A DNA stretch of 20,000 nucleotides from an uncultured virus (IMG/VR IMGVR_UViG_3300044614_000614) (lineage: Duplodnaviria; Heunggongvirae; Uroviricota; Caudoviricetes), in IMG/VR virus record IMGVR_UViG_3300044614_000614, positions 54,457-74,456 of that record. One strand, given 5' to 3'. The notes beneath the pieces are model-generated. The model saw nothing but the letters and a program-made list of their open reading frames with translations, searched no databases and was not told the origin of the DNA. Position numbers and translations under genes: made by a program. The first letter of the stretch is position 1. Every line of letters starts with the position of its first letter. Shown here piece by piece: positions 446 to 2,235 of this stretch.

Positions 446-585
446 ATTCTACTTTCGTCAGTAGTCACATCATCATATGAGATTCGAACTCATGCCTGCG
501 GATTTCGGCCGCCGTGCTTCCCCTACACCAATGAATGACTTGTCGCTGGTGGCCACCTGCTAGTGACTACTGACGAAAGTAGAAT
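446..585 (-). ncRNA. Candidate ncRNA: degenerate tRNA-like cloverleaf (GAA loop) enclosed by a perfect 23-bp inverted repeat
   Basis: 446-468 is the exact reverse complement of 563-585. Interior 469-539 folds as acceptor-like stem, D arm GTGT-AGGGGAA-GCAC, arm GCGG-CCGAAAT-CCGC and T arm ATGAG-TTCGAAT-CTCAT; no CCA. Confidence 0.6.
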
Positions 586-1863: not shown

Positions 1864-2130
1864 TTAGTCCTTCATTGCGCCGAACATGAAGCCCTTGCGA
1901 GGATCACCCCACTCAGTCTCAGCACGAACACGAACATATCGTGCGCGAGTGTCGGCTGTATTAGGATTAGGCACAGTAACCCACGGGTTCTTACCCTTTA
2001 ACCATGCCTTCTGCAAGAGTGTCCACTTATCAATAGCGGAACGTTCACGCTTGATAGCCTTTGACAGACTACGATTTGCTTCACGTTCACCCTTAGAGGT
2101 GTAAGCAGACTTAGACTTCGGTGCAGACAT
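1864..2130 (-). CDS. Hypothetical basic phage protein (88 aa)
   Basis: ORF with GGAG RBS filling the gap between two tRNA genes. Confidence 0.8.
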   Translation of the reverse strand: MSAPKSKSAYTSKGEREANRSLSKAIKRERSAIDKWTLLQKAWLKGKNPWVTVPNPNTADTRARYVRVRAETEWGDPRKGFMFGAMKD

Positions 2131-2152: not shown

Positions 2153-2235
2153 TGGCGACCACTGAGGGATTCGAACCCCCATTTTCAGCTCCAGTTACGT
2201 CTAGTCGGGTAGAAGCCGACCTCGGCTAAGTGGCC
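2153..2235 (-). tRNA. Non-canonical tRNA-like RNA with TCT (Arg) loop and no D arm at the normal position
   Basis: Acceptor GGCCACT/AGTGGTC, then G and CCA; T arm GGGGG-TTCGAAT-CCCTC; arm GTCGG-CTTCTAC-CCGAC begins only 8 nt after the acceptor strand. Confidence 0.7.

Follow-up and report, generated by a model that had tools for sequence, protein, structure and literature searches.

A tRNA-like gene with a displaced D-like segment

The stretch of DNA analysed here, referred to as the window, is 20,000 nucleotides long and forms part of a 74,456-base virus record (G000), which is estimated to be 45% complete and carries a DnaB-like helicase, a UvsX-like recombinase and a DNA polymerase. Positions 2153-2235 of the window hold an odd tRNA-like gene of 83 nt on the minus strand, read from 2235 to 2153. 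The gene opens with GGCCACT (RNA nt 1-7, 2229-2235), the 5′ strand of an acceptor stem that pairs at all seven positions with AGTGGTC at 2157-2163, followed by a single-nucleotide connector, T8 (2228). A canonical D arm is missing; there is no hairpin between position 9 and the anticodon stem, and just eight nucleotides, T8 plus AGCCGAG, separate the acceptor strand from the anticodon arm. AGC (nt 9-11, 2225-2227) and CGAG (nt 12-15, 2221-2224) form the 5′ strands of two proposed helices, P1 and P2, with partners at nt 47-49 and nt 35-38 respectively. The anticodon arm (2204-2220) consists of a 5-bp stem, GTCGG/CCGAC, and a 7-nt loop, CTTCTAC, with the anticodon TCT at 2211-2213.

Between the anticodon arm and the T arm lies a 23-nt segment, TAGACGTAACTGGAGCTGAAAAT. 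From the alignment and the pair counts described below, it begins with a TA bulge (nt 33-34) and the 3′ strand of P2, GACG (nt 35-38), which together occupy 2198-2203. A D-loop-like bulge of eight nucleotides follows, TAACTGGA (nt 39-46, 2190-2197), and then the 3′ strand of P1, GCT (nt 47-49, 2187-2189), which was assigned from covariation and a mutual information (MI) scan. The segment ends with an A-rich linker, GAAAAT (nt 50-55, 2181-2186), at the place of the variable loop. The T arm, GGGGG-TTCGAAT-CCCTC (2164-2180), is evident from the sequence, from its Rfam alignment and from pairing in the family, and the gene closes with the acceptor 3′ strand AGTGGTC, a discriminator G and an encoded CCA (2153-2163). 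Apart from the D arm the element therefore has the parts expected of a tRNA, namely the acceptor stem with discriminator and CCA, the T arm, and an anticodon arm with T33 and a purine at 37. A preliminary description of the sequence had listed the acceptor stem, G73, CCA, T arm, UCU hairpin and 23-nt segment, and all of these lie where it placed them.

On the same strand, a T4-type late-promoter-like motif, TATAAATA, is found at 2254-2247, 11 nt upstream of G1. An 88-aa ORF (1864-2130, minus strand; PHROG 23239, function not known) starts 22 nt downstream of the element and is preceded by a GGAG-type ribosome-binding site.

Several other features were observed nearby. A tRNA-Ile(tat) of 92 nt lies at 1450-1541 on the minus strand, and also at 1706-1797 of a second viral contig, L004; its D loop is very short and its long variable arm resembles that of a class II tRNA. 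ARAGORN calls the window gene, and its nearest Rfam family is tRNA-Sec, at 27.9 bits. A 68-nt tRNA-like stretch at 470-537 (minus strand; Rfam tRNA, 33.3 bits) has an apparent 4-bp anticodon stem and gave no ARAGORN call, including at a low threshold. At 3-149, on the minus strand and running off the window start, an ORF fragment beside the tRNA cluster resembles by eye the N-terminus of a GIY-YIG homing endonuclease. Outside the window, ARAGORN reports in G000 a tRNA with a CTA anticodon (C1:46778-46851; labelled Pyl, amber-reading) and another with a 2-base 'anticodon' (C1:52332-52413). TAG ends 13 of the 78 long ORFs of the record.

Standard tools miss or barely detect the element

The preliminary description had proposed a comparison of tRNA finders. 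In its default mode ARAGORN called eight other tRNAs in the window and missed the element, and the intron and mitochondrial modes also made no call there. The Rfam tRNA model (RF00005) scored the element at 33.3 bits, against a gathering threshold of 29, in sensitive mode only; the element was absent from a default gathering-threshold run over the whole window. In the RF00005 alignment the D arm is deleted and 20 nt are inserted in the variable region. With a lowered threshold ARAGORN offered a different fold, with a D hairpin closed by a 4-nt loop, a TCTA/TAGA stem and a 2-base 'anticodon'. We rejected this fold, which is paired in 51% and 47.6% of cells in the family. Folded alone, the element is no more stable than shuffled sequences (z = -0.62), and a BLAST search with 601 bases around it returned zero matches among cultured phages.

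A family of related genes in phages

An exact search with the T arm and the acceptor 3′ strand found seven viral contigs. Five carry an identical element despite differing upstream flanks, one (L006) carries a version two bases off, and the last, L004, holds a normal tRNA. This tRNA-Arg(tct), at L004:1452-1528, shares its first 10 and last 28 bases with the window element; either the middle part was swapped between genes of the normal and the rewired kind, or the two are the product of a recent divergence.

We then used two degenerate patterns. The first constrained no more than the anticodon loop, the T loop and a long spacing, and found 69 loci, with the odd layout in 44 full copies and one truncated copy and 24 that are unrelated. 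In the second the anticodon was left free and the constraints fell on the D-loop-like motif, linker and T loop; here all 58 loci have the odd layout. Pooled, the scans gave 53 distinct sequences on about 74 viral contigs, as tallied from the two tables, and these make up alignment A1. The bulge reads TAAnTGGA in 44 of the 53 sequences, and the linker is GAAAAT in 30 and GnAAAT in 13 more. Conservation of the T loop, the anticodon loop and parts of the bulge and linker is partly circular, since these places were fixed by one pattern or the other. The connector T8 is invariant (53/53) and was left unconstrained by every search pattern. The discriminator is G in 26 sequences, T in 17 and A in 10, and CCA is encoded in 30 of the 53.

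A covariance model (R1) was built from the A1 structure, as had been suggested for phage homologues at the outset, and scored the window copy at 93.2 bits, compared with at most 34 bits for the normal tRNAs of G000. The preliminary description had also allowed that the homologues might be normal tRNAs and this copy a one-off rearrangement, whereas 53 distinct homologues have the odd layout, far more than a chance resemblance. G000 itself holds a second member outside the window, about 3.7 kb before the window start (C1:50651-50744, minus strand). This copy is 94 nt long, has the anticodon ACG and scores 45.8 bits with R1; it contains an extra hairpin inside the linker, its P1 is shortened or bulged, and it received no call from ARAGORN. 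When the family pattern was run against 185,579 prokaryote species, with one genome each, it matched four stretches only, all on contigs of metagenome-assembled genomes and scoring 77-88 bits with the family model.

Cultured phages also carry the gene. BLAST searches matched 295 records when the query was the window element and six when it was L081. Four records were examined and each holds a full member: Vibrio phage D419 (L134:1469-1551, 80.7 bits with the covariance model, anticodon ACG), Microbacterium phage Pumpernickel (L135:1483-1563, 72.8 bits, UCU), Maribacter phage Panino (L149:1466-1548, 84.6 bits, UCU) and Caulobacter phage CcrColossus (L148:2501-2584, 80.7 bits, ACG). The hosts of the family thus span at least four genera, and further matches include six Pseudomonas phage records, Zooman and CcrPW. 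In none of the four records examined does the odd gene carry a tRNA annotation, and among the matches listed for the window element (40 of the 295) none has an annotated feature under the match. In the D419 record the locus tags skip from TRNA_0009 to TRNA_0011 exactly at the unannotated odd Arg gene, which suggests that a prediction was removed before deposition.

The element is unchanged in contigs whose flanks have diverged, and in a contig from an RNA library seven differences fall in the ORF while the element has none, which together point to purifying selection on the element. From these sequence comparisons we conclude that the element is a member of a widespread, unannotated family of predicted arginine tRNAs in phages, in which the anticodon arm would sit inside the D stem.

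Covariation places the anticodon arm within a D-like stem

The preliminary description had proposed that AGC at positions 9-11 pairs with GCT of the 23-nt segment, and the structure tested on A1 was this pairing (P1) plus a second helix (P2). The three standard stems are almost always formed. The acceptor stem (1-7:73-79) is paired in 98.7% of cells, with double changes in all seven pairs, the anticodon stem (16-20:28-32) in 96.6%, with double changes in all five pairs, and the T stem (56-60:68-72) in 99.2%. P1 (9-11:47-49) is paired in 94.3% of cells. Its first pair, 9:49, is A-U in 47 of 49 sequences. The second, 10:48, changes from GC (27) to AU (16) and CG (2) and is never unpaired, and the third, 11:47, is CG in 33, AU in 3, UA in 3, UG in 2 and something else in 6. 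P2 (12-15:35-38) is paired in 70.3% of cells. Here 12:38 is CG in 50 sequences and 13:37 is GC in 40, AU in 7, CG in 3, GU in 1 and UA in 1, with weaker pairing at 14:36 (30 of 53) and 15:35 (16 of 53). In the window copy just C12-G38 and G13-C37 are standard pairs; in L006, the contig whose element differs by two bases, both changes turn P2 mismatches into pairs.

An unguided MI scan of 3741 column pairs recovered the same structure, with ranks 1 to 18 all belonging to it; among the pairs of P1 and P2, 10:48 ranked 9, 13:37 ranked 13, 11:47 ranked 17 and 14:36 ranked 18. Across the 53 distinct sequences compensatory changes are present in all five helices. The AGC/GCT pairing is therefore borne out by covariation. 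Run on the family, RNAalifold returned the three standard stems only, without P1 and P2, and nearest-neighbour energies averaged -17.9 kcal/mol with P1 and P2 and -18.9 kcal/mol without them, the two helices giving a gain in 21 of the 53 sequences. P1 and P2 thus have evolutionary rather than thermodynamic support, as they covary but are favoured neither by RNAalifold nor by the computed energies. A local D-like hairpin placed after the anticodon arm was also considered and rejected, as 59% of its cells are paired and one of its pairs forms in 2 of 49 sequences, and the segment does not form the variable arm of a class II tRNA.

As nt 9-15 pair with two stretches on the 3′ side of the anticodon arm, they enclose that arm in a D-like stem. 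TAAnTGGA then forms an 8-nt bulge in the 3′ strand of this stem, and a 6-nt A-rich linker leads on to the T arm. The term 'D-arm-less', offered at first for this RNA, holds in so far as there is no D hairpin, but the covariation of P1 and P2 indicates that a D-like stem does exist and encloses the anticodon arm.

Arginine identity

All 53 sequences have an arginine anticodon, UCU in 44, ACG in 6 and UCG in 3. The result is the same for the 27 sequences found by the anticodon-free pattern alone, where the counts are 18 UCU, 6 ACG and 3 UCG. Bacterial arginyl-tRNA synthetase (ArgRS) recognises an identity set made up of A20, C35, U or G at 36 and A or G at 73. In the anticodon loop T33 and C35 are invariant (53/53), and all but one of the 53 sequences have A at position 37. 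The base right after GG in the bulge is likewise always A, and its equivalence to A20 depends on the three-dimensional fold. GGA is present in all 26 sequences whose search pattern left the bulge region free.

The odd gene complements the tRNA sets of the phages

We compared the odd genes with the normal tRNAs in five phage genomes. ARAGORN finds 29 normal tRNAs in G000, none of them for Arg, and the odd genes are the element (UCU) and the second member (ACG); with the record estimated at 45% complete, a normal tRNA-Arg may exist elsewhere in the genome. Vibrio phage D419 has 18 normal tRNAs, with no Arg, and an odd ACG gene. Panino has 20, including Arg(acg) without a tct gene, and Pumpernickel 42, including Arg genes acg, ccg and cct, again without tct; in both the odd gene is UCU. 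In four of the five genomes the odd gene thus has the Arg anticodon that is otherwise missing. In CcrColossus no gap is filled, as the odd Arg(ACG) lies directly before a normal Arg(ACG). Another contig, L110, has an odd Arg(UCU) in tandem with two normal Arg genes, acg and cct. The codon use of G000 matches its two odd anticodons, UCU and ACG. In its 78 long ORFs, AGA makes up 42.4% of Arg codons and CGT, CGC and CGA together 48.9%.

Two further observations concern these clusters. In CcrColossus the next gene is annotated in the record as a 'tRNA-OTHER' pseudogene (L148:2672-2754); it is 83 nt long, its D region is enlarged and its anticodon loop has the Arg anticodon CCG, so that the odd Arg(ACG), the normal Arg(ACG) and this gene form three consecutive Arg-type genes. 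A tmRNA is present in phage tRNA clusters that also hold odd tRNAs, at L004:830-1171 and in the Panino record (L149), according to ARAGORN or the record annotation.

Transcription and genomic context

The motif [TC]ATAAATA, ending 7-11 nt upstream of the element, is present in nine of 56 distinct combinations of element and flank, covering six different element sequences whose flanks are otherwise unrelated. This conservation argues for a conserved transcription start just upstream in this lineage, as predicted from the motif. The element had been described as having an exact late promoter just upstream, and TATAAATA is indeed present, with the motif conserved at this spacing in a subgroup. 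Genome-wide enrichment does not accompany it, however, as G000 contains five occurrences on the strand of the element where about five are expected. Most members of the family are found inside tRNA clusters and many directly follow another tRNA, with which they are probably co-transcribed.

In the metatranscriptome search one run contained a small share of words from the element region. One metatranscriptome contig (259 nt, depth 3.7) corresponds to 1958-2216, covering part of the element and the ORF, and could be DNA; it establishes neither a start, an end or a strand nor expression. The element and the 88-aa ORF are possibly on one transcript.

Comparison with known tRNAs

To our knowledge few features in biology are as conserved as the order of the cloverleaf arms, and the known exceptions either lose arms, as in mitochondria, or alter stem lengths, as in Sec, Pyl and allo-tRNAs. 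The family shares with canonical class I tRNA-Arg (RF00005) the 7-bp acceptor stem, the discriminator and CCA, the TTCGAAT T arm, the anticodon arm and the GGA motif. It differs in the position of the D-loop-like motif and of the 3′ strand of the D-like stem, both of which follow the anticodon arm, and in having a linker where the variable loop would be. Class II tRNAs (Leu, Ser and Tyr) also have a long stretch between the anticodon and T arms, 23 nt in the case of the window element, but in the family this stretch pairs back to nt 9-15 rather than forming a hairpin of its own, and the anticodons are those of Arg. In circularly permuted and split tRNA genes, found in algae and archaea, the order of the parts is non-standard and processing restores the cloverleaf. 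In the present family, by contrast, the 5′ and 3′ ends lie where they normally do, and the altered topology would persist in the mature RNA.

Mitochondrial tRNAs lacking the D arm (type III, mt-tRNA-Ser(AGY)), as covered in the available part of a review of non-canonical tRNAs (PMC7609411), also have no D hairpin and use a short connector that contacts the variable region. These are short, organellar RNAs that have lost the D-loop and T-loop motifs, whereas the family is viral, longer than normal at about 83 nt, and has a canonical T loop, a D-loop-like motif and the P1 and P2 helices. The word 'phage' does not occur in the available part of that review, and a full-text literature search found no description of a tRNA with this topology. 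The family is clearly a relative of tRNA, with an arm order not described in the literature searched, and it is probably a tRNA.

The nested layout is also found with other anticodons. A scan with a wider range of anticodons gave at least 80 loci, and a minority of those listed stand above normal tRNAs. Genes with this layout have UAU (L120:115-198 at 58.2 bits, L229 at 63.2 bits, L173, L230, L227, L207 and L076), GAU (L191 and L244), CAU (L212 and L076:118-197) and the Arg anticodon CCU (L241); L076:287-378 is also among them. The rewired architecture would therefore not be confined to the Arg family as defined here.

A possible three-dimensional arrangement

The T loop is canonical, and the bulge follows the base order of a D loop, namely an A, a purine, two bases, GG and an A. 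Its second A is matched by a T at the last base of the linker in 49 aligned rows, and also in L017 and L018, which are misaligned at this point; the same two positions are G and G in L013, L069, CcrColossus and L241, and G and C in most Ile-type relatives. The strand that runs from P2 to the anticodon loop on the 5′ side is nine nucleotides long in all 53 sequences, and P1 has two to three base pairs. The bulge order and T loop, the covariation between bulge and linker and the constant 9-nt strand suggest that the normal tRNA core is retained, and for this reason we favour a re-threaded L shape, as a model inferred from these features.

In this L, P2 and the anticodon stem (nine layers) would replace the D stem, the 26-44 layer and the anticodon stem (ten layers) of a normal tRNA. 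P2 would take the place of the D stem with its strand connectivity swapped, and the bulge, placed at the elbow, would function as a genuine D loop whose second A pairs with the final base of the linker, much as in the 15-48 pair. P1 would form a short strap in the inner angle beside nucleotide 8, and the A-rich linker would line the core in the place of the variable loop. The other possibility is a simple three-way junction in which one arm would span 12 bp; the GG would then be too distant from the T loop for the chain to return via a single A.

Discussion

We consider that the element is probably the gene for a working tRNA-Arg(UCU) that reads AGA and has a non-canonical secondary structure and a rewired core. 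We rate this reading best on the Arg anticodons, on the tRNA sets, which in four of five genomes lack the matching Arg tRNA, and on the use of AGA, CGT, CGC and CGA codons. The 'arm-swapped tRNA-Arg' of the preliminary description is accordingly the best supported of its proposals, through the Arg anticodons, the invariant candidate identity positions, the complementarity to the tRNA sets and the codon use. The RNA would be made from the phage tRNA cluster, in this lineage perhaps from its own late-type promoter a few nucleotides upstream and possibly jointly with the downstream ORF. Host RNase P would trim it, with CCA already encoded, and host ArgRS would charge it through the A after GG (acting like A20), C35, U36 and G73. 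The charged RNA would then supply AGA decoding for phage mRNAs.

Could the RNA instead be a tRNA mimic or decoy, which, through its anticodon loop, acceptor and elbow, is recognised by a host nuclease or toxin that targets tRNA and soaks it up or resists it, with translation an added role or not the main one? tRNA-cleaving immunity is common, and two sources indicate that phage tRNAs counter such defences and that phages may carry resistant tRNAs (PMC11555353, PMC12916289). According to the second source, type I-A retrons were suggested to cut tRNA D-loops, and degradation-resistant tRNAs may be expressed by phages (PMC12916289). Such work offers a possible selective advantage but no direct connection to the family. 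A changed D region with a kept anticodon loop would offer a possible escape from an enzyme that reads the core, and the odd and normal Arg(ACG) genes side by side in CcrColossus fit the same idea. A decoy role, however, leaves aside that the missing anticodon is supplied in four of five genomes, matching the main Arg codons of the phage, and that all features expected to be needed for charging are conserved. Our analysis also tied no defence system specific for tRNA-Arg or the D arm to these phages, and we regard this explanation as unlikely.

The position of the 88-aa ORF, 22 nt downstream with a ribosome-binding site, the promoter-like motif upstream and the one RNA-library contig that joins element and ORF could also point to a processing or regulatory signal, where the tRNA-like fold in the ORF leader acts as an RNase P site or stabilises the mRNA. 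Yet members are found in many contexts, mostly tRNA clusters with a tRNA directly upstream or downstream, and a leader function would not account for the Arg-only anticodons and the conserved identity positions, so that we give it very little weight. A decaying or rearranged tRNA-Arg pseudogene without function, as the lack of an ARAGORN call, the low Rfam score and the fold z-score might have indicated, is refuted by the 53 distinct homologues, in which each of the five helices shows compensatory changes, by their presence in phages of at least four host genera, and by the identity of the element in contigs with diverged flanks, in agreement with the case first made against decay.

Returning to the tRNA-Arg reading, a broader and more tentative proposal, which we think doubtful, is that the odd genes, including those with UAU, GAU, CAU and CCU, make active tRNAs that reach the L shape through the re-threaded core, with P2 joined to the anticodon stem, the bulge as D loop and P1 as strap, and that they have spread among unrelated phages as host nucleases or other readers of the D arm or core miss them.

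If the element is a working tRNA, the connectivity of tRNA would be more plastic than has been assumed. It would account for some phages whose near-complete tRNA sets seem to lack tRNA-Arg, and it would reveal a weakness of the standard tRNA finders, as all four cultured-phage records examined leave the gene unannotated. The family would provide a natural test case for how the shape of a tRNA is read by ArgRS, RNase P, EF-Tu and the ribosome. Should the rewiring protect against immunity that targets tRNA, it would constitute a new principle of counter-defence, and if the re-threaded core is correct, the cloverleaf and the armless forms of mitochondria would be joined by a third solution to building a tRNA. 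The cultured phages that carry the odd gene, together with their hosts, make these questions testable.
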